A stretch of DNA of 12,865 nucleotides from Clostridia bacterium (GTDB lineage: Bacteria; Bacillota; Clostridia; Christensenellales; Aristaeellaceae). Location of the stretch: NCBI GenBank assembly GCA_045599485.1, contig JAZRWA010000075.1:1-12865 (forward strand), in the 5' to 3' direction. Below are positions 1-12,865 of this stretch, piece after piece (position 1 is the stretch's first letter; each line of letters opens with the position of its first letter). Made by a program: the position numbers and the translations under genes. The notes under the pieces were generated by a model that was not told the origin of the DNA, did not search any database, and saw nothing but the letters and a program-made list of their open reading frames with translations.

Positions 1-125
1 TGAAGGGACTGGAAGCACACACCACCGTCATTCTCTCGCAGGTGGATGAGAACGTGTTCCGTCGTCTCGGTGTCAACCTGACCATGGACCCCAAGTATCA
101 GTCCCGCAAACTTTATCACAAATAA
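1..125 (+). CDS. 3' end of an unidentified protein-coding gene (partial, enters from the left edge)
   Basis: The frame starting at position 3 is open from the window edge (…KGLEAHTTVILSQVDENVFRRLGVNLTMDPKYQSRKLYHK) to TAA at 123-125. A hairpin terminator follows directly. I do not recognise the product from 40 residues. Confidence 0.45.
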   Translation, partial: KGLEAHTTVILSQVDENVFRRLGVNLTMDPKYQSRKLYHK

Positions 126-143
126 GCGTGCTGATTGCGCATT

Positions 144-172
144 AAAAAGGCAGGCTGTCCGGCCTGCCTTTT
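144..172. terminator. Bidirectional rho-independent terminator between convergent genes
   Basis: A 7-bp GC-rich stem, GGCAGGC (149-155) pairing with GCCTGCC (162-168), has a 6-nt loop. It is flanked by AAAAA (144-148) and TTTT (169-172), so it can serve both the + strand partial gene and pyrH on the - strand. Confidence 0.7.
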
Positions 173-192
173 CATTATTTAATTCTCTTGAT

Positions 193-894
193 TCAGGGAT
201 GCAGTACGGTGCCCCGGTCATCGCCGTTGATCACCGCCGTAATGCTTTCGGCCGAATCCAGTCCAAAGACGCGCACCGTAGGGATGTGCTGTTCATTCAG
301 CATTGCAAACGCCGCGGTATCCATCACCTTCAGACCGCGCGCCATAGCTTCGCCATAGCTGACGTCTCTCAAAAGCACCGCGGAAGCATCTTTTCTGGGA
401 TCTGCAGTATAGACGCCGTCGATGTTTTTGGCCAGCAGCAAGGCGTCCACCTTCATTTCGGCTGCACGCAGCACCACCGCCGTATCCGTGGTAAAGAAGG
501 GATTGCCCGAGCCGCCGGCAAACAACACCACCTTGCCGGATCTCATGGCTTCACGGGCCGTCTGTACATTATAGGGCTCACACACGCGCGGCATATCGAT
601 AGCAGAAAAGACAACGGCTTCCGCGCCGTTTCTCTCAATGGCATCACGCATACACAGGCAATTGATCACCGTGCCCAGCATGCCCATGTGGTCGGCAGTC
701 ACAGCATCCATCTCCTGGGACTGTCTTCCGCGCCAGATATTGCCCGCACCGATGACAATGCCAAGCTTTGTGCCGCTCTTGACGATATCCGCCAGCACCC
801 GGCCCACTTCCATAATTTTGTCCTGATCAAAGAGACGACCGTTTTCGCCCAGTGCCTCGCCGCTCAGCTTCAGCAGAATACTGTTGTATTTCAT
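193..894 (-). CDS. pyrH: UMP kinase (uridylate kinase)
   Basis: The 233-aa ORF MKYNSILLKLSGEALG…GAGNIWRG…FAGGSGNPFFTTDTAA… shows typical amino-acid-kinase-fold PyrH motifs. It sits in the conserved rpsB-tsf-pyrH order. A GAGGAG RBS lies upstream and the stop is TGA. Confidence 0.95.
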   Translation of the reverse strand: MKYNSILLKLSGEALGENGRLFDQDKIMEVGRVLADIVKSGTKLGIVIGAGNIWRGRQSQEMDAVTADHMGMLGTVINCLCMRDAIERNGAEAVVFSAIDMPRVCEPYNVQTAREAMRSGKVVLFAGGSGNPFFTTDTAVVLRAAEMKVDALLLAKNIDGVYTADPRKDASAVLLRDVSYGEAMARGLKVMDTAAFAMLNEQHIPTVRVFGLDSAESITAVINGDDRGTVLHP

Positions 895-904
895 CTTTCG
901 CTCC

Positions 905-937
905 TCAAAAAAGGACGGACATTTGATTGTCCGTCCT
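905..937 (-). terminator. Hairpin plus U-run between tsf and pyrH (terminator or partial attenuator)
   Basis: On the minus strand, the stem AGGACGGACA (928-937 rc) pairs with TGTCCGTCCT (912-921 rc) across a 6-nt loop. TTTTTT (906-911 rc) follows, just before the pyrH RBS. Confidence 0.6.
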
Positions 938-950
938 GTATATTAAGCAA

Positions 951-1619
951 TTACTTCTTGCCGGTCATCTCGGCGATTTCGGCAGCCAGATCGCTCTGCT
1001 TCTTCTCGATGCCTTCGCCCAGCTTGAAGCGGACAAAGCGGCGGATGGTCACCTTTTCACCGGTCTTCAGGGTGGTCTCGTTCAGCAGATCCTTGATGGT
1101 GATGTCAGGATTCTTCACGAACTGCTGATCCATCAGGCAAACTTCCTTGCAGTACTTGTCCACACGGCCTTCAACGATCTTGTCGATGATGGCAGCGGGC
1201 TTCTTGGCGTTCTTCTCGTCGTTCATGACCTGCTCATGGGCGATCTTGCGCTCGTCTTCCAGCTTGGCAGCGGGAATCTCGTCCTTGGTCACGTACTCGG
1301 GAGCAGCAGCGGCGATGTGCATCGCCACATCATGGCACAGGGCCTTGAAGGCATCGGTGCCGGCCACAAAGTCGGTTTCGCAGTTGATCTCAACCAGCAC
1401 GCCGATCTTGCCGCCCATGTGAATGTAGGACTCAACAGCGCCTTCAGCAGCGACGCGGCCGCTCTTCTTGTTGGCAGCAGCCAGTCCCTTTTCACGCAGA
1501 TATTCAACGGCCTTTTCCATATCGCCATCGCTGGCAACCAGGGCCTTTTTGCAATCCATCATACCGGCCTGAGTGCGCTCGCGCAGCTCTTTTACCAGTG
1601 CCGCAGTAACTTCAGCCAT
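951..1619 (-). CDS. tsf: Translation elongation factor Ts (short form, 222 aa)
   Basis: The N-terminal UBA-like signature [28 protein letters not shown] is diagnostic of EF-Ts. The gene lies directly downstream of rpsB, has a GGAGGA RBS and stops at TAA. Confidence 0.95.
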
Positions 1620-1654
1620 TTTTTTATTCCTCCGGTCTGTATTTTAGATAGAAA

Positions 1655-2374
1655 TTATTCGGCGTCCTTAGCGGCTTCTTCGCCGTCCTGCACGCCCTGC
1701 TTGCCTTCCAGGATGGCATCGGCCATCTTGCCGGCAATCAGCTTCACGGCACGGATGGCATCATCGTTGCCGGGAATGACGTAATCGATCTCATCGGGAT
1801 CGCAGTTGGTATCAACAATGCCAACGATCGGAATGCCCAGAGCACGTGCTTCGGCCACGGCGATGTGCTCCTTGCGGGGGTCAACCACAAACAGGGCGCC
1901 GGGCAGATTCTTCATTTCGCGGATACCGCCCAGGTTGGCGATCAGCTTTTCACGCTCGTGGATCAGCTTGATGACTTCCTTCTTGGGCAGCACATCAAAC
2001 TGGCCGTTCTGCTCCATACGATCGATGGAGTTCAGACGCTCGATACGGGTCTTGATGGTCTTGAAGTTGGTGAGCATGCCGCCCAGCCAGCGGTTGTTGA
2101 CATAGTACATGTTGCAGCGCTTGGCTTCGCTCTCGATGCTCTCCTGGGCCTGCTTCTTGGTGCCGACAAACAGCATAGTCTTGCCTTCCAGAGACAGGTT
2201 GCGGTCGAACATGTAGGCTTCGTCGATCTTGCGGACAGTCTTCTGCAGGTCGATGATGTAGATGCCGTTGCGCTCAGTAAAGATGTACTGGGCCATCTTG
2301 GGGTTCCAGCGGCGGGTCTGATGACCGAAGTGCACGCCGGCTTCGAGCAGGTGCTTCATGGAAATGACGCTCAT
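1655..2374 (-). CDS. rpsB: 30S ribosomal protein S2
   Basis: [27 protein letters not shown]… is the canonical S2 N-terminus. I place the start at the ATG at 2374, which is preceded by AAGGAGGAAG. The track ORF start at 2440 adds 22 non-conserved residues and has no RBS. The stop is TAA. Confidence 0.95.
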
Positions 2375-2472
2375 GGTTTCTTCCTCCTTGTTTTTCCACC
2401 GCGGAGACGTAAATTTTGCTGCCACCCTGTACGGGCACAAGCGGCTTGTCTTCCGCGTGCGTTATCTGTGGT

Positions 2473-2501
2473 ATTGTATCACATCAAGGTGCACTTTGCA
2501 A
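2473..2501 (-). promoter_or_regulatory. Candidate sigma-A promoter for rpsB-tsf
   Basis: On the minus strand, TTGCAA (2496-2501) is followed by a 17-nt spacer and TGaTACAAT, an extended -10 with its hexamer at 2473-2478. This leaves a leader of about 90 nt before the rpsB RBS. This is a motif match only. Confidence 0.45.
2480..2490 (+). repeat. Left copy of the 11-bp direct repeat CACATCAAGGT that brackets the TAG-interrupted locus
   Basis: An exact 11-mer recurs in the same orientation at 7453-7463. AATATT plus a T-run follows both copies, directly on the right and after 9 extra nt on the left. Confidence 0.5.
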
Positions 2502-2632
2502 TATTTTTTTGTTTCTTTCTCAACTGAATTACCAAAAAACTTTTGCTCAATTGCTTTATCGGATTGCGTCGTAATTGGATGCTTCATACCGTTATCCCCC
2601 TCCGTTCTGTATTCCAAACATTTTACAGTTTT

Positions 2633-2662
2633 TTGACTATTGTTCTGTTATCATGTTATAAT
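2633..2662 (+). promoter_or_regulatory. Near-consensus sigma-A promoter for the 2697 gene
   Basis: TTGACT (2633-2638) is followed by an 18-nt spacer and TGtTATAAT, with the extended -10 TG at 2654-2655 and TATAAT at 2657-2662. A GAGGAGG RBS follows at 2679-2685, 11 nt before the ATG at 2697. Confidence 0.6.
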
Positions 2663-2696
2663 ATTACACATTCCATTCGAGGAGGCCCATACATAA

Positions 2697-3203
2697 ATGC
2701 TTAAAAAGTATGTTTCATTGCTGATGGCGTTCATCTTCCTGACCACGGTTCTGCCGCTGTCTGTTGGTATGCCTGTGGCCAAGGCCAAGAGTTTGGATGA
2801 GGAATTGACAGACTACGCATTGATGGCATTTCAGGAGATTTCAGCGACTTTTGGAAAAACAAATCCCGATGATGTAGCTTTCCGCAGGCTGATGAAACGT
2901 TTGTATTCGGATAAGAATCAGACCGGTGAAGCCAATATGCAGGATCATCCGATCTGGAATACCATCGTCGAATGGGTCACGAATATGACAGATTACCGTG
3001 GCTTTTTGGGGATCAATCCGGAGCAGCAATATGCTGAGATCCTGCTGTATACGGAGCTGTTGCAGGACATGCTGAAGGCAGGCAACGAAAGTTTTGAAGG
3101 CGCCGTGAAGCTTGCTGAAAATGAAACCAAAGTGGGGGGCAAGTGGAAAGCAACGATCGGTGCAGTGTGGAATAGTGTATCCGCATATTCCTCCACAACC
3201 TAG
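2697..3203 (+). CDS. Segment 1 of the TAG-interrupted frame: a 168-aa secreted protein under standard decoding
   Basis: This is the only segment with a real translation start (promoter, GAGGAGG RBS, ATG). It has a Sec signal peptide, MLKKYVSLLMAFIFLTTVLPLSVGMPVAKA|KS, with an AxA cleavage site. It ends at TAG 3201. Confidence 0.85.
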   Translation: MLKKYVSLLMAFIFLTTVLPLSVGMPVAKAKSLDEELTDYALMAFQEISATFGKTNPDDVAFRRLMKRLYSDKNQTGEANMQDHPIWNTIVEWVTNMTDYRGFLGINPEQQYAEILLYTELLQDMLKAGNESFEGAVKLAENETKVGGKWKATIGAVWNSVSAYSSTT

Positions 3204-6200
3204 CTGATTCGTAGCTCCCTCTTAAGGCGCATTCTAACCAGCCCCGACATGCTCATCAACGTTCAAGACGTAGGCAGTCTGTTCGGTCATGGCAATCCGG
3301 GTGTCGGTGATTATCTGAAGGGAACCGGATATTTTCAGTACACGGTCTCGTCTATTGATCTGCTGGAGAAAATCAGTGAATCTGCAGAAGACGAAAGCCT
3401 GCGTCTGGCTTGCGATGCAATGTTGTATGTATATAAAAACTGGCGGTCAGAAGTGCTGAAGGATAAGGATATATTCAGCGGCAGGTATGCAGACGATCGG
3501 GTGTATCAGGAAGAAATGGACGAATATGTCCGTACAGAATTGAATCACTATCTCAAGAAAAAATACGGAAAATAGAATGAAAAGGATATGTGGAATTGGG
3601 TAGAGACAAGCCAGCCAGCAATCTCTATAATGCAAAGATCGGGCGCAGGTTTGAGTAACGTAACCTTTAACATGAAAGGTATCTTTGTCAGCTTTGAAAA
3701 GATGCGCTGCACCGAAAATATTGCACAGGCTATGACCGGTATATTGGCCGATCAGATGAACGCATCCGGCAAAACATGGCGCGACTACATGTCCTGGGTA
3801 AACCTGTATATGCAATACCTCAAGCTGTGCCTGATTGGCGAATCCGCGCTGCATGAGCTGGTAACCGTGAATTCATGGATTCCGGTCGATTTCCTGTTCA
3901 AAAAAGGCGACACGGCCGACTTTGAAGCTTGGTATACGCAGGATAAGAATCTGCTTGAAATGTTTTATACAGATTCGCAGTACTATCTCCAATATGTGCT
4001 GGAGAAATATTACGTAATGATCAGTATGACGGATGATTTTGAAGCGTTGCTGGAACGGGAAGACCTGCATCAACGAACGATCCGAGGCGTGGTGCTGCAA
4101 GACGAATTCTACGCAGATCCGGATGATACGACCAAGCCGGGCCTGAACGCCGCCAACGAGTACGCCGGGGAACCAGCAGTCGGCGTTTCCGTAAGACTGG
4201 TAGGCAAAAATGACGATCGCGAATATGCCGCCACGGTGACCGGTGAGGACGGCAGCTATGAGCTGACTTATGTTGAGGAAGCGGCTGTCGGTGAACCACT
4301 GAAACTGGTGATCGCCGAGAATTGCGAATACGGTCTGTTTGCAGAAAACGAGACGGACGTGTGGCGGGATGTAGAGCTGGAATTCCGCAGCGAATGGAAT
4401 TCGCAGGCAACAAGGACTACCAACTTTTCCACCGAAACCAATCTGTCCTGGACATTTGATTACTGCGATCAGCTCTTCCTGCAGCCGGAGGATCAATACA
4501 ATCATGATCTGGCACGCTTGTCACTGGGCATGGCGGTAGCAGGCTATTCTGCGCCTGAGGCAGACCGCTACTGGAATTCTGATGGCGATATGGGCCGCGA
4601 AAGCAATATCCGTGCAGCCTATGAAAAGCTTGGCTTTATCGATTCGCCTTATCCAACCAGATTCGTCCATTATGATAAAAATTTGAACGACGACAGTTCC
4701 AAGGTGGCTTTCTCCATTGCCGCAAAGGATATTTTCAATCCCGAAATATCTATCAAAGAGGACGAGGCGCAAAAGGAGCACCTCGTGGTGGTGGTCCTTC
4801 GCGGCGGCGGCTACGGATGCGAATGGTCCAACAATTTCTATGTGAAGCAAGCTGATGTGCAGAACTATCATGCCGGCTTCTATTTTGCAGCCAGTGAGGT
4901 GGCAAAATAGGTGGAGGAATATATCAGCTCCACATTTGATGACGGACGCCCCGTTCGCCTGTGGATGACAGGCTACAGCCGTTCTGCAGCCACCTGCACA
5001 CTGGCAGCTGAATTGCTGGATGCCATGACGAACAAGCCATATGAGCATCTGTATGCATACACCTTTGCAGCACCCGCAGGCACACAGCAGCCTAAGGCAA
5101 TCAAAGGCCTGTATAACATCATTTATGGTGAGGATCTTGTGCCGCGCGTAGCACTTGAAGCATGGGGCTTTGGTCGAAATGGAACCAGCCTGTTCTTTAC
5201 AACCAACTCCACAAAGCTGAAAGAAGAAGATGCTTCAAAAATTCAGAATATTTTCCAAAAGATCACCCGTTATTCCGGTGCAGGCTACAACCCGCTGGAT
5301 TATACGGCAGAGAGTGACCTGATCACATAGATCGTGGGATTGCTACAAAAATCAGCGCCGGATGTGGATACCTATGCTGAAAAAATGCAGCCTGCTTTGG
5401 TGGCGATCGCGAAAATGTACTTCTCAAAGCGCCACGAGCCGGATGGTCGCAACACGACGGATTTTGATTATATCGATGAAATGATGACCGGCGTGATCGA
5501 GGAGCAGAATCCCAACTACCGTGCCCAAGTAACAGAAGCTGAGAATCTTCTGAAGTAGTGGGTCAACCAGACAAACGCCATCAAGTCGCTCACGCAGATC
5601 ATCAGCGGGCTGGCTCCGCGCACAGCGGGTGCTTTGCCCTTCACTCTGCTCATAACTCTGGGTAGCAAACTGGTGGAGTGGGAACAATCAGGTGAACAAT
5701 TTTTATGGAATCTGCTGCACAAGGCAGAAGACTTCGTTTCCGCCTTGTGCCATATTGAAAACTACGGAAACATCGTGCGAGAGAAGTCCCAGTTGAAGTC
5801 GTCTGCCGATTCAAGCAATATGAGTTCAGCTGAAACGAATGAGTATCTGACCATGATAAAGATACTCGGCTTTTTGATTGCCAATGCGTCCGGCGTCGCG
5901 CAGCGCGCAATCGGCGGCACAGGTACGACCGGCATCATGATGGGTCACAGACCCGAGGTATACCTTTCCTGGCTGTATGCACTCAGCGGCGAAGAACTGT
6001 TCGGGCGCGAGGATGCAATGTCTGTCGACCTGCGTGTACGCCCGATCAAGCGACACTTCACCGGTGTCGTGCTGGCAGAATATGCGAAGGGTGATTACGG
6101 TCGCATAACAGCATATCTCCTGGATAACAGCATGCATTTACGCCTTGATAACGATGGCAACCTGATTACAGTGGAACGTTTTGATTGGACGGGCTATTAC

Positions 6201-7196
6201 TCCCCCTGGAACTGGTATCTGCGAATGATCCTGCTCGATGACAGGTATCTGTACTCTGAATACCGCGTGGTGGATGGCGCTGACTTCCTCTATTACGAAA
6301 TACAGTATCAACTCTACGATCTGTTGGGCAATGTACCTCTCCTCTTCTCGGCCAAAACCGATGAAAACGGTATACTTGTCCTGACCGACAATAAGTTTGA
6401 AACACACATGGCACCGGTTGAGATCGGCAAGGTTGGATCCACTCTTAACGTAGAGCTAATGACTTAGACACTCAATAGCATGTTTGGTCGCTACGGCCTG
6501 GATTTCCAGCTTCAAACGACTGCCAGTCCATCCTACTATGTAAACCACGTAGAAAAGACCCATTACGCAGATATCCCCATCGGCGTCATCAAGGATAACA
6601 GCCGTGACAGGATGATCTTTGATATCGACACCACCGATTAGAGGAACTTCAGTTACACGGATTTTCTGGCTTATGAAGAAGTGATGGAAAAGTACTATCG
6701 TCCCAGGAAGATCGTTACCGAAAGCGATCCAGCGGCTCTGGTATAGAAGGTGTTGGAAAGCACCGGCGCAAACTTCACGCTCAACTCCTCCAGCGAATAC
6801 AACGGCACGATCACCGAAACCTACAATGACGAAAATGGAGTGCAGCTGAAGTTCAGTATTGACAAGGCCTCCGGCCGAATCATCAAGATCGTACTGGACG
6901 ATTCCGCCCTATGCAACAGCGACTGGAGAAACCGTTCAATGGCGATTAAAAACTATACCATGGAGCTTTATGACCGTATGATGCAAATAACCGAACTGGG
7001 GCTGGATGAAGCACTAAGTTTGGAGCTGCGTTCAATCGATTTTGAGAGCGCAAAGGTAAAAAAGAACGCGTTCGACCTGAATGAGCGTACGCTGTCCTAT
7101 GAAACACAGGGAATACAGGTGACAATGTCCAAGGAGACCATGCTTCCGAGTGAAAACATCCTGAGCCTGCTCACGATCACTTTCCCCGCTCCCTGA
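2697..7196 (+). CDS. Single 1,499-codon reading frame with 8 in-frame TAG codons, encoding a secreted class-3-lipase-like protein. It is either translated with TAG read-through/reassignment or is a TAG-only pseudogene.
   Basis: ORFs 2697, 3249, 3588, 4911, 5334, 5634 and 6750 all start at coordinates divisible by 3. I read every gap codon by codon. The only interruptions are TAG at 3201, 3573, 4908, 5328, 5556, 6465, 6639 and 6744 (codons 169, 293, 738, 878, 954, 1257, 1315, 1350). The frame ends at TGA 7194-7196. No other + strand frame in this span yields an ORF in the track. The lipase-like domain spans the TAG at 4908. Confidence 0.65.
3249..3575 (+). CDS. Segment 2 of the TAG-interrupted frame (track ORF, 108 aa)
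   Basis: It is in frame with segment 1, and the 15 codons from 3204 to 3248 are also open. No Shine-Dalgarno sequence precedes ATG 3249. The confidence refers to this interval being coding in this frame, not to it being an independent gene. Confidence 0.55.
   Translation: MLINVQDVGSLFGHGNPGVGDYLKGTGYFQYTVSSIDLLEKISESAEDESLRLACDAMLYVYKNWRSEVLKDKDIFSGRYADDRVYQEEMDEYVRTELNHYLKKKYGK
3588..4910 (+). CDS. Segment 3 of the TAG-interrupted frame (440 aa): beta-sandwich-like region plus the N-terminal half of the lipase_3-like domain
   Basis: It is in frame, with only 4 sense codons after TAG 3573. IRGVVLQDE…GVSVRLVGKNDDREYAATVTGEDGSYELTYV resembles carboxypeptidase-regulatory/Cna-B-type beta-sandwich repeats. 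HLVVVVLRGGG and HAGFYFAASEVAK match the lipase_3 'vvaFRGT' and 'vHkGF…' blocks. The segment ends at TAG 4908. Confidence 0.7.
   Translation: MWNWVETSQPAISIMQRSGAGLSNVTFNMKGIFVSFEKMRCTENIAQAMTGILADQMNASGKTWRDYMSWVNLYMQYLKLCLIGESALHELVTVNSWIPVDFLFKKGDTADFEAWYTQDKNLLEMFYTDSQYYLQYVLEKYYVMISMTDDFEALLEREDLHQRTIRGVVLQDEFYADPDDTTKPGLNAANEYAGEPAVGVSVRLVGKNDDREYAATVTGEDGSYELTYVEEAAVGEPLKLVIAENCEYGLFAENETDVWRDVELEFRSEWNSQATRTTNFSTETNLSWTFDYCDQLFLQPEDQYNHDLARLSLGMAVAGYSAPEADRYWNSDGDMGRESNIRAAYEKLGFIDSPYPTRFVHYDKNLNDDSSKVAFSIAAKDIFNPEISIKEDEAQKEHLVVVVLRGGGYGCEWSNNFYVKQADVQNYHAGFYFAASEVAK
4911..5330 (+). CDS. Segment 4 of the TAG-interrupted frame (139 aa): nucleophile-elbow half of the lipase_3-like domain
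   Basis: It begins at the codon immediately after TAG 4908. VRLWMTGYSRSAATCTLAAELL resembles 'i.vTGHSLGGAlA.l.a', with the Ser codon at 4977-4979. YAYTFAAPAG resembles 'ytFG.PrvG', and IIYGEDLVPRV resembles 'rvv…D.VPrlP', with the Asp codon at 5133-5135. A GAGGTGG lies 8 nt upstream of GTG 4911, so reinitiation is conceivable. Confidence 0.7.
   Translation: MEEYISSTFDDGRPVRLWMTGYSRSAATCTLAAELLDAMTNKPYEHLYAYTFAAPAGTQQPKAIKGLYNIIYGEDLVPRVALEAWGFGRNGTSLFFTTNSTKLKEEDASKIQNIFQKITRYSGAGYNPLDYTAESDLIT
5334..5558 (+). CDS. Segment 5 of the TAG-interrupted frame (74 aa)
   Basis: It is in frame, with one sense codon (ATC) after TAG 5328, and no RBS. It ends at TAG 5556. Confidence 0.5.
   Translation: MGLLQKSAPDVDTYAEKMQPALVAIAKMYFSKRHEPDGRNTTDFDYIDEMMTGVIEEQNPNYRAQVTEAENLLK
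5634..6467 (+). CDS. Segment 6 of the TAG-interrupted frame (track ORF 277 aa; open from 5559)
   Basis: It is in frame, and the 25 codons from 5559 to 5633 are open. The track start is a TTG with no RBS. It contains MMGHRPEVYLSWLY, a possible lipase 'H…Y' catalytic-His block with the His codon at 5946-5948. It ends at TAG 6465. Confidence 0.6.
   Translation: MPFTLLITLGSKLVEWEQSGEQFLWNLLHKAEDFVSALCHIENYGNIVREKSQLKSSADSSNMSSAETNEYLTMIKILGFLIANASGVAQRAIGGTGTTGIMMGHRPEVYLSWLYALSGEELFGREDAMSVDLRVRPIKRHFTGVVLAEYAKGDYGRITAYLLDNSMHLRLDNDGNLITVERFDWTGYYSPWNWYLRMILLDDRYLYSEYRVVDGADFLYYEIQYQLYDLLGNVPLLFSAKTDENGILVLTDNKFETHMAPVEIGKVGSTLNVELMT
6750..7196 (+). CDS. Segment 9 of the TAG-interrupted frame (148 aa), the C-terminal region ending at the real TGA stop
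   Basis: It is in frame. The preceding 6468-6749 is also open except for TAG 6639 and TAG 6744, giving segments 7 and 8 of 57 and 34 codons. There is no convincing RBS before GTG 6750. Confidence 0.55.
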   Translation: MLESTGANFTLNSSSEYNGTITETYNDENGVQLKFSIDKASGRIIKIVLDDSALCNSDWRNRSMAIKNYTMELYDRMMQITELGLDEALSLELRSIDFESAKVKKNAFDLNERTLSYETQGIQVTMSKETMLPSENILSLLTITFPAP

Positions 7197-7334
7197 TTAC
7201 AATGCTGCTGTCTTTATTGCTCTTTCCGGTCAACTCACCCGCAAATGGGCCAATATATCCCTTCAAAATTAAATGCTCCATTGTTTGATCTTCCTCCATT
7301 TACTTCCAGAGATAATACTGTATTGTTTTCTTAT

Positions 7335-7368
7335 ACTGTGCCGGTGACTCATATTTCGACTGTGCCGG
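7335..7368 (+). repeat. 10-bp direct repeat ACTGTGCCGG x2 in an AT-rich spacer
   Basis: The copies lie at 7335-7344 and 7359-7368, 24 bp start to start, inside a stretch of about 310 nt (7197-7510) with no convincing ORF. Confidence 0.5.
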
Positions 7369-7452
7369 ATTGTTTATCAACAATGTCTTCAACGCCTTGG
7401 ATTGCATAACCAGCATATTAGCTCGTCACCATGTCACGCGATTTTATCCTCA

Positions 7453-7463
7453 CACATCAAGGT
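7453..7463 (+). repeat. Right copy of the 11-bp direct repeat CACATCAAGGT
   Basis: It is an exact match to 2480-2490 in the same orientation. Confidence 0.5.
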
Positions 7464-7510
7464 AATATTCGTTTTCAAACAAGAAAACAAGAGAAATACA
7501 GTACATACTA

Positions 7511-7539
7511 TTGACAACTGTATAAATAAGGTCTATGCT
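7511..7539 (+). promoter_or_regulatory. Candidate sigma-A promoter of the trp operon
   Basis: TTGACA (7511-7516) is followed by a 17-nt spacer and TATGCT (7534-7539), directly upstream of the T-box leader. Confidence 0.6.
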
Positions 7540-7545
7540 TTCATC

Positions 7546-7834
7546 AGATAAACCGTTGAAGCGGAAGTAAAGGTGATTGTTGCTCCTACAGAGAACCTGC
7601 GGTGGTGGAATGCAGGCGGAAAGCAGGTCATCACAATGGACCGCTGAGGGTGCGGTGAAAGACTGGCATCAGTCGATTATCCCGCGACGCGCAGGACTGC
7701 GTCAGTGTCCGGAGGTATGTTTGTACCTTGCCAAGTGTGCAGCAAGCGCTGCAAACCAGGGTGGCACCGCGGATCTGTTGTTGATTCGTCCCTGGTAAGG
7801 TTCATTATCGAGCCTTACCGGGGACTTTTTGTTT
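7546..7834 (+). promoter_or_regulatory. T-box riboswitch leader, tRNA-Trp specific (UGG specifier)
   Basis: A conserved T-box sequence, AAACCAGGGTGGCACCGCGG, lies at 7753-7772. A stem-I AGAGA element lies at about 7590. The stem-I base AGCGG (7560-7564) pairs with CCGCT (7641-7645), with UGG-A (7637-7640) immediately 5' of the closing helix, the position expected for a specifier codon plus purine. A terminator follows, and then trp biosynthesis genes. Confidence 0.85.
7790..7834 (+). terminator. T-box terminator hairpin
   Basis: CCCTGGTAAGG (7790-7800) pairs with CCTTACCGGGG (7813-7823), giving 11 bp including one G-U pair. ACTTTTTGTTT follows. It lies 10 nt upstream of the trpE RBS. Confidence 0.8.
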
Positions 7835-7856
7835 ATCAAGTGCAGGAGGAATGACA

Positions 7857-9317
7857 ATGCAGCTGTATCCGAGTCTTGAAACTGCGAATCGATACGCCAA
7901 GGAAGGCTATCGCATGATGCCCCTGTGTACTGAACTGCTCAGCGATGTGCGTACCCCGATGCAGGTACTGCGTGCGCTGAAAAATGTATCCAGCCATGTC
8001 TATCTGCTGGAATCCGTCGCCGGTCATGAACAGTGGGGCCGCTACACCTTCCTGGGCTATGAGCCCACCATGGAGATCACCTGTATGAACGGCACGCTGC
8101 GCATGGGCAGCCTGACCCTCGAGACCCGTGACCCCAATCATTATATCCGTCAGATCCTGGCCGATCACCACAGCCCCAGGATCGAAGGGCTGCCAAGCTT
8201 CACCGGCGGTCTGGTCGGTTATTTCAGCTATGATTATCTGAAATATGCCGAGCCTACCCTCCGTCTGGACGCAGAGGACAGCGAGCATTTTCAGGACATG
8301 GATCTGATGCTGTTTGACAAGGTGATCTGCTTTGATCACTACAAACAAAAGATCATCCTGATGGTCAATATTGCTCTGGATAAGCTGGAAACAGAATATA
8401 ACCGGGCCGCCATGGTATTGAGCCAGATGGCCGAACTGGTGATGAACGGCGCACTCAAGCAGGAAAAGCCCGGCCGTCTCAAAAGTGCCATCCGTCCCCT
8501 GTTTACGCAGGAAGCCTTCTGCAGCATGGTGGAAAAGGCCCAATATCACATCCATGAAGGAGACATTTTCCAGATTGTGCTGAGCAACCGCCTCGAAGCC
8601 GATTATGAAGGCAGTCTGCTCAATGCCTACCGCATCATGCGAACGAAGAATCCCTCACCATATATGTTCTATTTCAGCGGCACGGATGTCGAGGTCGCTG
8701 GCGCTTCGCCCGAAACACTGGTGAAGCTGGAAAACGGTGTACTGCACACCTTCCCGCTGGCAGGTACCCGTCCGCGCGGCAAGACGCCGGAAGAAGACAA
8801 GGCGCTCGAAGAAGATCTTCTGGCTGACCCCAAGGAACTGGCCGAGCACAACATGCTGGTGGATCTGGGCCGCAACGACATCGGCAAGATCAGTCGTTTC
8901 GGTACAGTGGAAGTGGAAAAATACCACTGTATTGAGCGTTTCTCCCACGTCATGCACATCGGCAGCACGGTGCGCGGCGATATCCGTGAGGATTGTGACG
9001 CACTGGATGCGGTGGATGCGATCCTGCCAGCCGGCACATTGTCGGGTGCGCCAAAGATCCGTGCCTGCCAACTGATCAACGACCTGGAAAACAACAAGCG
9101 CGGCATCTACGGCGGCGCGATCGGTTATCTGGACTTTACGGGAAACCTGGATACCTGCATTGCCATCCGCATCGCCTACAAAAAGAACAGCAAGGTGTTT
9201 GTCCGCTCCGGTGCCGGCATCGTGGCGGACTCGGTACCCGAAAAAGAATATACCGAATGCACCAACAAAGCCGCCGCAGTCATCAAATCGCTGGAAGAAG
9301 CGCAGGAGGTGGAATAA
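7857..9317 (+). CDS. trpE: Anthranilate synthase component I
   Basis: The sequence has a TrpE/chorismate-binding family signature throughout (…LESV…GRYTFLG…, …PSPYMFYF…, …GAIGYLDFTGNLDTCIAIR…). AGGAGG at 7844-7849 favours ATG 7857 (7-nt spacing) over the track start at 7851 (1-nt spacing). The stop is TAA. Confidence 0.93.
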   Translation: MQLYPSLETANRYAKEGYRMMPLCTELLSDVRTPMQVLRALKNVSSHVYLLESVAGHEQWGRYTFLGYEPTMEITCMNGTLRMGSLTLETRDPNHYIRQILADHHSPRIEGLPSFTGGLVGYFSYDYLKYAEPTLRLDAEDSEHFQDMDLMLFDKVICFDHYKQKIILMVNIALDKLETEYNRAAMVLSQMAELVMNGALKQEKPGRLKSAIRPLFTQEAFCSMVEKAQYHIHEGDIFQIVLSNRLEADYEGSLLNAYRIMRTKNPSPYMFYFSGTDVEVAGASPETLVKLENGVLHTFPLAGTRPRGKTPEEDKALEEDLLADPKELAEHNMLVDLGRNDIGKISRFGTVEVEKYHCIERFSHVMHIGSTVRGDIREDCDALDAVDAILPAGTLSGAPKIRACQLINDLENNKRGIYGGAIGYLDFTGNLDTCIAIRIAYKKNSKVFVRSGAGIVADSVPEKEYTECTNKAAAVIKSLEEAQEVE

Positions 9318-9320
9318 GCC

Positions 9321-9917
9321 ATGATCGTCCTGATCGATAATTATGACAGTTTCTCCTATAACCTGTATCAGCTCATCGGCTCGATCGAGCCGGAGATCCG
9401 GGTGATCCGCAACGACGCCCTGACGGTGGAAGAAATCGCCGCGCTCCGCCCCGACGCGGTCATCCTTTCCCCCGGCCCCGGTCATCCCGAAGACGCCGGC
9501 ATCTGCGTGGAGGCCGCCCACACGCTCGGACAGACGATCCCTCTGTTCGGCGTATGCCTGGGGCATCAGGCGATCTGCACCGCCTGGGGCGCAACCGTTT
9601 CCTACGCAAAGGAACTGATGCACGGCAAGCAGAGTATGACGGCCTTCGATCCCGACTGCGAGCTTTTCAAAGGTCTACCGTCCCATGCGCCCGTCGCCCG
9701 CTACCACTCGCTTGCAGCCATCGAAAGCACCTTGCCACAATGTCTCAAGGTCACCGCCCGCACCGAGGATGGGGAGATCATGGCCGTCCGGCACACCCTC
9801 TATCCCATCTTCGGCGTGCAGTTCCACCCCGAATCCATCATGACACCGGACGGAAAAGCCATTCTGAGCAATTTTGTTCAATACGCCAAATCAATGAAGG
9901 ACAAACAGAGCCATTGA
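9321..9917 (+). CDS. trpG: Anthranilate synthase component II (glutamine amidotransferase, TrpG/PabA type)
   Basis: MIVLIDNYDSFSYNLYQL…, the GVCLGHQ catalytic-Cys motif and FGVQFHPES are class-I GATase hallmarks. The gene starts 3 nt after the trpE stop and has an AGGAGGTGG RBS. The stop is TGA. Confidence 0.95.
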   Translation: MIVLIDNYDSFSYNLYQLIGSIEPEIRVIRNDALTVEEIAALRPDAVILSPGPGHPEDAGICVEAAHTLGQTIPLFGVCLGHQAICTAWGATVSYAKELMHGKQSMTAFDPDCELFKGLPSHAPVARYHSLAAIESTLPQCLKVTARTEDGEIMAVRHTLYPIFGVQFHPESIMTPDGKAILSNFVQYAKSMKDKQSH

Positions 9918-9932
9918 CAGGAGGAAAAAGAG

Positions 9933-10958
9933 ATGATCCGCGAAGCCATTATCAAGCTGACCGAAAAAGGGGACCTGAGCTACGATGAAGCCTATGCCGT
10001 GATGAATGAGATCATGAACGGTGACACGACCCCGACACAGAATGCCGCCTTCCTGGCCGCGCTATCCACCAAGAGTACAAGAGCGGAAACCATTGAGGAG
10101 ATCTCCGGCTGCGCGTCGGCCATGCGCGCCCACGCCCTGTCCGTGGATGTAGGTGACATGGAAGTGCTGGAGATCGTGGGAACCGGCGGTGACGGCGCTC
10201 ACAGCTTCAACATTTCCACCACCTCCGCCATGGTGATCGCGGCCGGCGGTGTCAAGGTCGCAAAGCACGGCAACCGTGCTGCCTCCTCCAAATCCGGCAC
10301 GGCCGACTGTTTGGAAGCACTGGGTGTCAACATCAGTCTGACCCCCGAGCAGTGTGTGGCTCTGCTGGAAAAGGCAGGCTTCTGCTTCTTCTTTGCACAG
10401 AAGTATCATGCATCCATGAAGTATGTCGGAGCGATCCGCAAAGAGCTGGGATTCCGTACGGTATTCAATATTCTGGGACCGCTCACCAACCCCGCCCGTC
10501 CGCAGATGCAGTTGCTGGGCGTTTATGACGAATATTTGCTGGAACCGCTTGCGCAGGTTCTTTGCTCCCTCGGCGTTCAGCGCGGCATGGTCGTCTACGG
10601 CATGGATAAGCTGGACGAGATCTCCATGAGTGCGCCGACCAAGGTCTGTGAGTTCAGGGATGGATGGTACAAAACCTACACCATCACACCCGAAGACTTC
10701 GGCTTTGCCCGCTGCGACAAGAGTCAGCTGGTTGGCGGCACGCCCGAAGAGAACGCACAGATCACCCGCGATATACTGTCCGGCAAAGAGCAGGGACCGA
10801 AGCGCAGCACCGTGCTGATGAACGCTGGCGCCGCTCTGTACATTGCAGATAAGGCCGATACGCTGGCAGCAGGTGTCAAACTGGCGGCCGAACTGATCGA
10901 CAGCGGCAAGGCCCTTGCCACCCTGGAAGAAGTCATCAAATGCTCCAATGAGGTGTAA
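9933..10958 (+). CDS. trpD: Anthranilate phosphoribosyltransferase
   Basis: GTGGDG…FNISTT…[12 protein letters not shown](T)AD motifs are present. The protein is 341 aa, has an AGGAGG RBS and stops at TAA. Confidence 0.95.
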
Positions 10959-10959
10959 G

Positions 10960-11751
10960 ATGGCAACGATACTCGACACCATTGCCGATCATGCGCGTTT
11001 TCGTGTGCAGCAGGATGCCGCTCTCATTCCGCAGGAGGTCATGAAAGACCGTGCCTTGGCTATGGGAAAGGGAAGCGGTGACACCTTCCTGCAGGCACTG
11101 CGCCAGTCCGGCATGCGTTTTATCTGTGAGGTGAAGAAGGCCTCACCAAGCAAGGGAGTTATCGCAGAAGACTTCCCTTATATAGACATTGCCAGAGACT
11201 ATGAGGCAGCCGGAGCCGACGCAATCTCCTGCCTGACCGAACCGAAATGGTTCATGGGATCAGACAGCATCTTCACAGACATTCGCGTACAGGTAGCAAC
11301 GCCCATGCTGCGCAAGGATTTTACGGTGGATGACTACCAGATCTACCAGGCACGGGTGATGGGGGCCAATGCAGTACTGCTGATTTGTGCCCTGCACGAT
11401 ACGGCACAGATCGCGCGCTGGCTGCAGCTATGCGATGATCTTGGTCTGGCAGCTTTGGTCGAGACGCATGACGAGAAAGAAATCGAATCCGCCGTGAGTG
11501 CCGGGGCACAAATCATCGGCGTCAACAATCGCAATTTAAAGGATTTCTCAGTGGACTTTTCCAATGCAGCGCGCCTACGCGACCGTATCCCGACCAACGC
11601 AGTCTATGTGGCAGAAAGCGGTGTGAAGGGACCGGATGATGCCGCGGTGCTCCGAAAGATCGGCGCTGATGCCGCACTGATTGGTGAAGCCTTAATGAGG
11701 GCAGACAATAAGGCTTCCATGCTGGCGGCCATGAGGGAGGCAGCACAATGA
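10960..11751 (+). CDS. trpC: Indole-3-glycerol-phosphate synthase
   Basis: ILDTI…FICEVKKASPSKGVI…LTEPKWF.GS…LRKDF…NNRNL… are typical IGPS motifs. I prefer the start at ATG 10960, which has a GAGGTG RBS and lies just after the trpD stop. The track start at 10915 would overlap trpD by 44 nt. The stop is TGA. Confidence 0.92.
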   Translation: MATILDTIADHARFRVQQDAALIPQEVMKDRALAMGKGSGDTFLQALRQSGMRFICEVKKASPSKGVIAEDFPYIDIARDYEAAGADAISCLTEPKWFMGSDSIFTDIRVQVATPMLRKDFTVDDYQIYQARVMGANAVLLICALHDTAQIARWLQLCDDLGLAALVETHDEKEIESAVSAGAQIIGVNNRNLKDFSVDFSNAARLRDRIPTNAVYVAESGVKGPDDAAVLRKIGADAALIGEALMRADNKASMLAAMREAAQ

Positions 11752-12356
11752 GCAGCACCAAGATCAAGCTGTGCGGCATGCGCCGAATGCAGGACATTGC
11801 CGCAGTCAATGACCTGAAGCCGGATTTTATCGGTTTTATCTTCTGGGCCCCAAGCCACCGATATGTAACGCCGACGGAAGCCATGCAGATGAAAACAGCG
11901 CTCGATCCGTCGATCAAGGCCGTTGGCGTGTTTGTGGATGCGCCGGTCGATCTGGTGGCGAAGCTGCTGAATGATGACGTGATTGATATGGCACAGCTTC
12001 ACGGGCACGAGGACAATGTATATATTGAGCAGCTGCGGCAGTGTTCCGTCAAGCCCGTCATTCAGGCATTCAAGGTGAAAACTCCGGCTGACCTCGACCG
12101 GGCGGCCTGCTCTACGGCAGATCATCTGCTGCTGGACAGCGGTACCGGCAGCGGCGAAGCTTTCGACTGGTCATTGGTCAAGGATTTCCACAAGCCTTTC
12201 TTCCTGGCTGGCGGTCTGCATCCCGATAATGTGCAAGCTGCCATGCATCAGGTGCAGCCCTGGGCTGTTGATGTGTCCAGCGGCATCGAGACAGACAAAT
12301 TCAAGGATATCGAGAAAGTGCGGGCCTTTGTGAACAATGTCCGCAATGCAAAGTGA
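11748..12356 (+). CDS. trpF: N-(5'-phosphoribosyl)anthranilate isomerase
   Basis: KIKLCGM…D…GFIF…S.R.V… and LLDSG.GSG..FDW match the PRAI family. An ATGA overlap with the trpC stop suggests translational coupling. The stop is TGA. Confidence 0.92.
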
Positions 12357-12370
12357 AAGGGGTGATCGGT

Positions 12371-12865
12371 ATGCCGAAGTCCAAGGGACGCTTTGGCATC
12401 CATGGTGGTCAGTACATTCCCGAGACGCTGATGAACGCCGTCATCGAGTTGGAAGAGGCCTACAATTTTTACAAGAATGATCCCGCATTCAACGCGGAAC
12501 TGGCAGAGCTGTTCAATGAGTATGCAGGCCGACCCAGTCGCCTGTATTATGCGGAGAAGATGACAAAAGATTTGGCCGGCGCCAAGATTTATCTCAAGCG
12601 CGAGGATCTCAATCACACCGGCGCCCACAAAATCAACAATGTGCTGGGGCAGGCACTGCTGGCCAAAAAGATGGGAAAGACGCGTCTGATCGCCGAGACC
12701 GGCGCCGGTCAGCACGGTGTTGCCACAGCCACCGCCGCTGCCCTGATGGGCATGGAGTGCGTCGTGTTCATGGGAGAAGAGGACACCAAGCGTCAGGCAT
12801 TGAATGTATATAAAATGCGTCTTCTTGGCGCCACGGTGATCCCCGTGACCAACGGCACCGCCACC
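12371..12865 (+). CDS. trpB: Tryptophan synthase beta chain (5' partial, runs off the window)
   Basis: [24 protein letters not shown]…[15 protein letters not shown] (PLP-lysine motif) …[27 protein letters not shown] lies upstream. The frame is open to the window end (165 codons). It is absent from the ORF track only because it has no stop in the window. Confidence 0.93.

Follow-up and report, generated by a model that had tools for sequence, protein, structure and literature searches.

The 12,865-nucleotide stretch of DNA analyzed here (the window; contig JAZRWA010000075.1 of the Clostridia bacterium assembly GCA_045599485.1) contains, at positions 2697-7196 of the forward strand, one gene of 1,499 codons, which encodes a secreted multidomain lipase-like protein, is interrupted by TAG alone, and ends in TGA. 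It is very probable that TAG is translated in the gene family to which this frame belongs, and the comparisons described below favor 2697-7196 being one intact, functional gene in which all eight TAG codons specify an amino acid. The decoder is probably one of the host lineage and active genome-wide; this lineage is an uncultured clade of gut Clostridia with RpsB sequences at least 90% identical. A more specific proposal, to which we give rather less than an even chance, is that this clade has reassigned UAG to a standard amino acid, probably glutamate, throughout the genome, with release factor 1 (RF1) lost or disabled; this would be the first natural bacterial UAG reassignment and a fourth bacterial code, seen at an early stage. 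We infer the host-encoded nature of the decoder, its identity, and the amino acid that it inserts.

In-frame translation of 2697-7196 gives eight TAG codons and neither TAA nor TGA before the terminal TGA (7194-7196). The other two forward frames across the same interval contain 70 and 82 TAA and TGA codons, and the open frame is therefore not a product of chance. In the flanking genes, including an open trpB fragment, none of the 2,415 codons is TAG, and termination is at TAA in five cases and at TGA in four. An earlier note made from the letters of the window had pointed out both that TAG is missing from the flanking genes while occurring eight times in this one frame and that the neighboring genes, like the large frame with its TGA, terminate at TAA or TGA; both observations are borne out by the translation and the table of stops. 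The TAG codons, numbered here from the 5′ end, lie on the forward strand at codons 169 (3201-3203), 293 (3573-3575), 738 (4908-4910), 878 (5328-5330), 954 (5556-5558), 1257 (6465-6467), 1315 (6639-6641), and 1350 (6744-6746).

A protein fragment with 91% identity (P0001) leads to contig L081 (ENA assembly ERZ27247129, an assembly separate from that of the window), in which a full orthologue is found at 3442-7956, with 87.5% identity at both the protein and the DNA level. The orthologue has nine in-frame TAG codons, no other in-frame stop, no frameshift, a single in-frame 5-codon indel, and a TAA terminator. Five TAG sites are common to the two genes, namely TAGs 2, 3, 5, 7, and 8 of the window gene. 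At TAGs 1, 4, and 6, the orthologue has CAG (Gln), GAG (Glu), and GAG (Glu), respectively, and over all seven unshared sites TAG in one gene is paired with CAG, GAG, GAG, GAA, GAA, AAG, and AAA in the other. A second contig of the same assembly, L082, carries a paralogue that is 60% identical in the lipase domain and that stays open through its whole 1,055 codons with five TAG codons and no other stop. The three genes of the lipase family together hold 22 TAGs, as compared to the uninterrupted homologues P0002-P0008. Adjoining the orthologue in L081 (8116-9291, forward strand) is a gene for a multi-pass membrane protein, which was called as 262 residues ending in TAG but is open through three TAG codons to a TGA (391 residues), with no Pfam, PADLOC, or PHROG match. 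The earlier note had recommended a search for other genes with multiple in-frame TAGs; those seen here are the L081 orthologue with nine, the L082 paralogue with five, and the membrane protein gene with three. The latter has a G+C content of 0.48, like the lipase gene and unlike the G+C-rich flank. At the end of the L081 contig (9974-10285, forward strand), past a noncoding stretch of ∼680 bases, a Fic/DOC-family gene begins (a weak match to Fic_N), with a G+C content of 0.43; the low-G+C island of L081 may extend beyond its two TAG-bearing genes.

The whole frame is under purifying selection, across and after every TAG. The ratio of nonsynonymous to synonymous substitution rates (dN/dS) between the window gene and the L081 orthologue is 0.134 (dS 0.45), and its values for the individual 13 TAG-bounded stretches lie between 0.075 and 0.46, including the last 150 codons. 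Differences between the two genes number 123, 73, and 346 at codon positions 1, 2, and 3, respectively. When an equal divergence was applied at random, with the observed substitution spectrum, to a starting sequence lacking in-frame TAA and TGA (2,000 runs), means of 5.6 TAA and 3.5 TGA codons arose in frame, and none of the 2,000 runs remained free of both. Judged from the shared sites, the common ancestor of the two genes had at least five TAGs. An ancestor with that many TAGs, combined with purifying selection on the entire frame, implies that TAG is translated efficiently wherever selection acts. The fragments into which gene callers split the gene are what one would see in a decaying pseudogene whose nonsense mutations are all TAG by chance, an explanation that is extremely improbable. 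It would have to account for stops that are TAG only (eight in the window gene, nine in the orthologue, and five in the paralogue), for the lack of frameshifts, for a dN/dS that is low overall and past every TAG, and for a simulation that never preserved such a frame, and it was rejected on these four grounds. Recoding by a cis-acting element of the SECIS or PYLIS kind was also rejected, as no conserved stable RNA structure is present 3′ of the TAGs: the 100-nucleotide windows downstream of the eight codons have folding z-scores between +0.92 and -1.99, and none of their folds is unusually stable or common to the set.

The behavior of TAG in relatives of the host was followed through RpsB. The window RpsB corresponds to P0152 in the protein collection, and its nearest neighbors, at 90-95% identity, lie on contigs with rpsB-tsf-pyrH neighborhoods that represent at least four further species. 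Three sets of these loci (L083/L088/L089, L084-L087, and L090-L092) have ∼80% DNA identity to the window over rpsB, tsf, and pyrH; L093 and L094 were assigned to the clade by 90% RpsB identity alone. Stops were counted from the collection's own gene calls, a greedy longest-open-reading-frame finder having been discarded because it picks antisense frames in G+C-rich loci. The counts of TAA, TGA, and TAG are 13, 6, and 1 in L083; 17, 3, and 1 in L084; 10, 4, and 0 in L090; and 8, 11, and 0 in L093. At both of the TAG “stops,” the rest of the same protein continues in frame past the codon. In L083, the interrupted gene encodes an MMPL transporter whose second MMPL domain straddles the TAG, and its homologue in L054 is a continuous 847-residue open reading frame across the site, with Glu at the TAG position. 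In L084, the TAG lies within a conserved TPM-domain block, LFDYW[TAG]LDEDDVLLLLVIGEERY, for which the L083 equivalent is LFEAWKLDQKTVLVLLVIGEERY, and the TAG site aligns with Lys.

Taken over the window, L081, L083, L084, L090, and L093, TAG is found at none of 83 genuine gene ends, a small sample from around one chromosomal region, as compared to 99 of 972 (10.2%) in 80 loci of other Clostridia (Fisher p = 3e-4). The outgroup L095 (RpsB 86% identical), which has the same neighborhood, retains genuine TAG stops in 2 of 19 genes. At the same time, TAG is found in frame inside clade genes that have uninterrupted homologues: the lipase family, MMPL, and TPM. The earlier note called for a genome-wide tabulation of stop-codon use; across the loci examined here, there is no true TAG end, and two in-frame TAGs are present in MMPL and TPM genes. 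The absence of TAG stops, the in-frame TAGs in two chromosomal genes, and the purifying selection along the TAG-rich family together favor one of the three scenarios raised in that note, that of a lineage with a freed or reassigned TAG, which is tolerated mainly in accessory genes. As a separate observation on the L084 locus, LemA and TPM, which are separate in L083 (3298-4725, reverse strand; 188 and 280 residues), are fused in L084 (2978-4276, reverse strand) in one 432-codon frame that holds the in-frame TAG; this copy contains a short run of N.

Several considerations weigh against a lineage-wide change of code. In the window alone, the absence of TAG from nine stops is not significant (p ∼0.38 at the ∼10% TAG use of related Clostridia), and significance is reached only after the relatives are added. 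The 83 genes include recurring orthologues, amounting to ∼62 distinct gene families, and come from one chromosomal region, and a standard-code lineage with ∼3% TAG use would still yield 0 of 83 with a probability of ∼0.08. The evidence from core genes consists of two in-frame TAGs, each from a single metagenome assembly, and the MMPL and TPM codons could be recent nonsense mutations or assembly errors. Neither the window nor any clade locus examined contains a tRNA gene. The link of L081 and L082 to the clade of the window is based only on similar flank G+C and membership in the same assembly series, and the assignment of glutamate is based on 7 substitutions and 16 alignment columns. Lastly, TAG is ∼40-fold denser in the lipase family (5-8 per 1,000 codons) than in core genes (2 per ∼25,000 codons), and the lipase family is lower in G+C; this contrast would also fit repeated import from another donor in which TAG is a sense codon.

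The import explanation can be stated more fully: the lipase family was acquired, possibly repeatedly, from a TAG-sense donor such as a phage, a plasmid, or an unrelated organism; the gene is silent or truncated in its present host; and the selection that is observed reflects the history of the donor. We regard this as rather unlikely, although several features of the gene are consistent with it beyond the density of TAG. Its G+C content is 0.49, as compared to 0.55-0.59 in the neighboring genes, and its G+C content at third codon positions is 0.58, as compared to 0.61-0.78. The block common to the window (2648-7207, forward strand) and L081 (3398-7967), with 87.5% nucleotide identity, comprises the gene, 49 bases on its 5′ side, and 11 bases on its 3′ side, and so stops at the gene borders. 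The flanks are unrelated, and the contexts differ, with rpsB and the trp operon in the window and a FAD oxidoreductase, a ferredoxin, and an M20 peptidase in L081. Amber-recoded gut phages are, moreover, well documented (10.1101/2021.08.26.457843; PMC9523058). Phages of that kind were the example given in the earlier note for a TAG-recoded donor, and the searches gave no support for such an origin. No relatives were found in IMG/VR and JGI metagenomes with protein patterns or with a degenerate DNA pattern for KVAFSIAAKDI. A phage collection of 50,697 records gave three weak lipase-domain matches only (32-36% identical), a plasmid collection gave no match to the lipase-like gene, and there was no meaningful match in PHROG. 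Around the gene, no flanking repeats, integrase-like open reading frames, or other mobile-element marks are present. TAG is exchanged mainly with Glu codons and not, as the phage code 15 (TAG = Gln) would predict, with Gln codons. Import would, in addition, require the coincidence that the recipients belong to a clade that lacks TAG stops and has in-frame TAG in MMPL and TPM genes. The gene also keeps the strong promoter-like site and the ribosome-binding site described below. Nor is its genomic context that of a phage or prophage: rpsB is on one side and a trp operon controlled by a T-box on the other, and phage genes are absent from the surroundings. In a related search, a guessed CUA anticodon arm derived from tRNA-Glu matched 22 viral contigs, and none of these matches is a tRNA.

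The third scenario of the earlier note treated the TAGs as a gate: the host would terminate at TAG, and full-length lipase would be made only when a suppressor tRNA arrives, for instance with an amber-recoded phage, so that the eight ambers act as a sensor of foreign decoding. A low dN/dS could also result from selection on a full-length product that is made only rarely, five of eight TAG positions are kept between the orthologues, and a suppressor would be harmless to a host without TAG stops of its own. The gate nonetheless appears very unlikely. The protein has no PADLOC family match, and its secretion signal, together with homologues that are ordinary secreted proteins of standard-code bacteria, would be odd for an intracellular abortive-infection effector. 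TAG sites turn over at roughly the neutral rate of a synonymous Glu codon, and the in-frame TAGs in the MMPL and TPM genes of the relatives are left unexplained.

If TAG is instead a sense codon of the host lineage, close orthologues are the best guide to the residue that it specifies, as most of their codon differences are synonymous; distant homologues alone could not name the residue. Neutral rates were taken from fourfold-degenerate sites (G↔T 0.075, A↔T 0.042, and C↔T 0.188), and a rough model was used to compare the TAG↔Glu, TAG↔Lys, and TAG↔Gln codon differences expected under each hypothesis with the observed 4, 2, and 1. The resulting log-likelihoods are -5.9 for Glu, -8.0 for Lys, -9.8 for a residue without a synonymous codon (such as pyrrolysine), and -14.6 for Gln. 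If TAG encoded Gln, ∼8 CAG/TAG pairs would be predicted from the fast synonymous C↔T exchange, and one is seen. Turnover between TAG and Glu codons agrees with the expectation for a synonymous Glu codon (4.75 expected, 4 observed). In a BLOSUM-based score over 16 TAG columns from the lipase family, MMPL, and TPM, Glu obtains 16.3 bits, followed by Gln (8.1), Arg (8.0), and Lys (7.6); pyrrolysine cannot be scored from alignments. As judged from these comparisons, the inserted residue is polar, with Glu the best fit to the substitutions and Gln the worst, and the identification of the residue as Glu itself falls a little short of an even chance. Phage code 15 was rejected on the same data, with CAG at one of seven unshared sites as compared to Glu codons at four of seven, and the lowest likelihood for Gln.

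A different residue is invoked if the lineage reads TAG as pyrrolysine genome-wide, as a bacterial counterpart of the archaeal code 34. Pyrrolysine systems exist in some Bacillota, Lys codons face TAG at two of the seven sites that are not shared, and Lys is also the residue aligned with the TPM codon. Similar to the archaea with code 34, the clade has no TAG stops, and TAG is very rare in core genes and more common in accessory genes (10.1101/2024.09.30.615893). This reading is nevertheless unlikely. A residue without a synonymous codon fits the substitutions worse than Glu does (-9.8 versus -5.9 in the rough model), and no methylamine methyltransferase or pyl gene is present in the loci examined, which cover only about 150 kb. 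Furthermore, reports of pyrrolysine in bacteria are so far limited to a few methyltransferases and a single serine dehydratase, and TAG otherwise acts as a stop (10.1101/2024.09.30.615893).

A sequence of events that would lead to the pattern under a host-encoded reassignment begins with the loss of TAG as a terminator in the lineage. The codon would then have been freed, or RF1 lost or weakened, with TAA and TGA left to release factor 2 (RF2), which can serve both. A host tRNA with the anticodon CUA would now read TAG, and TAG would be returning as a rare sense codon, mostly in lower-G+C, faster-evolving accessory genes, with the core genes nearly free of it. No prfA gene is present in the loci examined.

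To our knowledge, the only settings in which UAG is known to be reassigned are phages, eukaryotes, organelles, and, since 2024-25, pyrrolysine-coding archaea. The bacterial code changes that are known all involve UGA (PMC8629427); bacteria are known to use translation tables 11, 4, and 25, and genome-wide UAG reassignment in prokaryotic cells has been described in pyrrolysine-coding archaea only (10.64898/2026.05.24.727570; Kivenson et al.). A full-text literature search gave no report of a UAG-reassigned bacterial lineage. Each of the established systems shares some features with the present case. In phage code 15, as used by crAss-like, Lak, and other clades (10.1101/2021.08.26.457843; PMC9523058), TAG is likewise found in frame in intact genes of gut DNA, TAA and TGA are kept as stops, and no cis element is involved. 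The main differences are that the gene described here lies in a bacterial chromosome in an rpsB-trp context, that relatives of the host also lack TAG stops, and that TAG is exchanged with Glu codons rather than CAG. With the archaeal code 34 (Kivenson et al., 10.1101/2024.09.30.615893), a cellular lineage has likewise given up TAG as a stop; the codon is very rare in the core and turns up in accessory genes, and coding density under table 11 is barely altered, such that standard tools miss it. That code differs in being archaeal, dependent on pylTSBCD, and confirmed by proteomics, whereas the present case is a bacterium with substitutions that favor Glu.

The bacterial codes 4 and 25, in which UGA is read as Trp or Gly and RF2 is lost, resemble the proposed change in the clade-wide capture of a stop, the dispensability of a release factor, a distribution that tracks phylogeny, and the retention of the stop in the outgroup; the codon and release factor here would be UAG and RF1. 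In the bacterial methylamine methyltransferases that contain pyrrolysine, UAG is decoded inside a bacterial gene as well, but these genes (MttB, MtbB, and MtmB) have one conserved TAG, with TAG a stop elsewhere, as compared to five to nine variable sites in the lipase family and none at gene ends. Sporadic prokaryotic readthrough genes, as described by Belinky et al. (2021, PMC7918605), also combine in-frame stops with low dN/dS; in the present case, a gene can contain as many as nine stops, every one of them TAG, and TAG terminators are missing across the lineage. With eight leaky stops, the full-length product would be negligible.

Were the reassignment correct, it would constitute a new bacterial genetic code and would make the “codon capture” route visible at an early stage, as a natural parallel to engineered RF1-free Escherichia coli. 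It would also bear on the interplay of amber-recoded phages with their hosts. Gene calling with table 11 would fragment or truncate genes in such genomes, and heuristics based on coding density would miss the change. Genetic-code engineers would have an interest in the tRNA/synthetase pair if TAG encodes Glu.

The lipase-like gene is preceded by putative expression signals. A promoter-like element, TTGACT-18-TATAAT with an extended -10 region and 11 of 12 consensus matches, is located at 2633-2662 on the forward strand and is identified by consensus match only; it is followed by a ribosome-binding site, GAGGAGG, read from the sequence at 2680-2686 (forward strand). Inspection of the N terminus predicts, from its form, a Sec-type signal peptide, MLKKYVSLLMAFIFLTTVLPLSVGMPVAKA, encoded by 2697-2786 (forward strand). 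A class-3 lipase domain of the α/β-hydrolase type (Lipase_3, PF01764) is placed at 4764-5156 on the forward strand, the start being approximate. The part 3′ of TAG 3 is matched by Pfam with 25.6 bits against a cutoff of 22; this match starts four residues past the codon and corresponds to profile positions 52-137. The first third of the profile must precede TAG 3, and the domain straddles this codon; the lipase-like character of the product, as first put forward in the earlier note, is supported by this domain, which spans the TAG at 4908. TAG 3 (codon 738) lies 23 codons 5′ of the nucleophile serine (residue 761), and distant homologues have Glu, Arg, or Thr at its position. The serine is part of a GxSxG-type nucleophile elbow, GYSRS (residues 759-763; 4971-4985, forward strand), which is GFSRG or GYSRG in the uninterrupted homologues. 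A likely catalytic Asp, assigned from the family pattern, is found in YGEDLVP (residues 810-816; 5124-5144, forward strand). The likely catalytic His is in GHRPEVY (residues 1083-1089; 5943-5963, forward strand), a GH..EVY motif that is kept in all full-length homologues and whose role is taken from its pattern. This motif is 3′ of TAGs 4 and 5 and would therefore be missing from a product that ended at any of TAGs 1-5. With Lipase_3 straddling TAG 3 and the His motif past TAG 5, the full-length product is predicted to be required for activity. A weak transthyretin/CarboxypepD_reg-like stretch is also present in the product.

Similar to class 3 lipases (PF01764), the window protein has the domain match and the GxSxG-like, D.VP, and H...Y motifs. 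The differences are that the domain is found inside a secreted protein of ∼1,500 residues, that the regions toward both termini of this protein are large and uncharacterized, and that a long insert precedes the His motif. Among 1.8 billion cluster representatives, 341 relatives were identified, including the fragment P0001 described above and several uninterrupted proteins that share this architecture and are 1,300-1,700 residues long: P0002 (45% identity), P0003, and P0005-P0008. These homologues indicate that the gene belongs to an ordinary bacterial secreted-protein family, of which it is, by its sequence, a normal member except for the TAGs. When the whole protein was searched with X in place of each TAG, no relative was returned among the candidates listed, and neither the solved structures nor a GTDB scan with the lipase-like protein gave a sequence match or a relative, respectively. 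A GTDB scan with TrpE found relatives that are all at most 75% identical, none of which has the lipase-like gene or TAG in its trp genes. In public annotations, gene callers have broken the lipase-like gene into up to nine pieces.

The flanking genes are arranged on both sides of the lipase-like gene, and none has an in-frame TAG. Upstream are the 3′ end of a gene on the forward strand (3-125, stop TAA at 123-125) and, on the reverse strand, pyrH (193-894, stop TGA), tsf (951-1619, stop TAA), and rpsB (1655-2374, stop TAA). Downstream, on the forward strand at 7851-12865, are trpE (stop TAA), trpG (TGA), trpD (TAA), trpC (TGA), trpF (TGA), and the open trpB fragment. A T-box leader (RF00230) is matched at 7547-7796 of the window (forward strand) with 82.4 bits against a gathering score of 93 (E = 2.7e-18), with the full model covered. 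A 16-pair terminator hairpin with a T-run at 7788-7825 ends the leader directly 5′ of trpE. Given the T-box match and this hairpin upstream of trpE, the trp operon is probably under the control of a tRNA-sensing riboswitch.

The DNA 5′ of rpsB differs in each of L083, L084, L090, and L093, where it carries trkAH, a sugar ABC transporter, DUF4340, or lacI, in place of the lipase gene and trp operon of the window; by this comparison, the site upstream of rpsB is a hot spot for rearrangements or insertions in this clade. Locus L093 (ENA ERZ1767606 NODE_18, 164 kb; RpsB 90% identical) has a G+C content of 0.484 and TAG at 0 of 19 stops. The TAG-rich gene family has a similar G+C content (0.48-0.49), and lower-G+C members of the clade are a plausible source of the lipase gene. 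Among the close RpsB relatives, P0167, from an NCBI contig of 6,396 bp, is annotated with 327 residues, ∼85 more than the others (237-250), which could be an N-terminal miscall or an extension. Between the convergent 5′ gene fragment and pyrH, at ∼125-190, is a G+C-rich hairpin, AAAAAGGCAGGCTGTCCGGCCTGCCTTTT, that looks like a bidirectional terminator common to the two.

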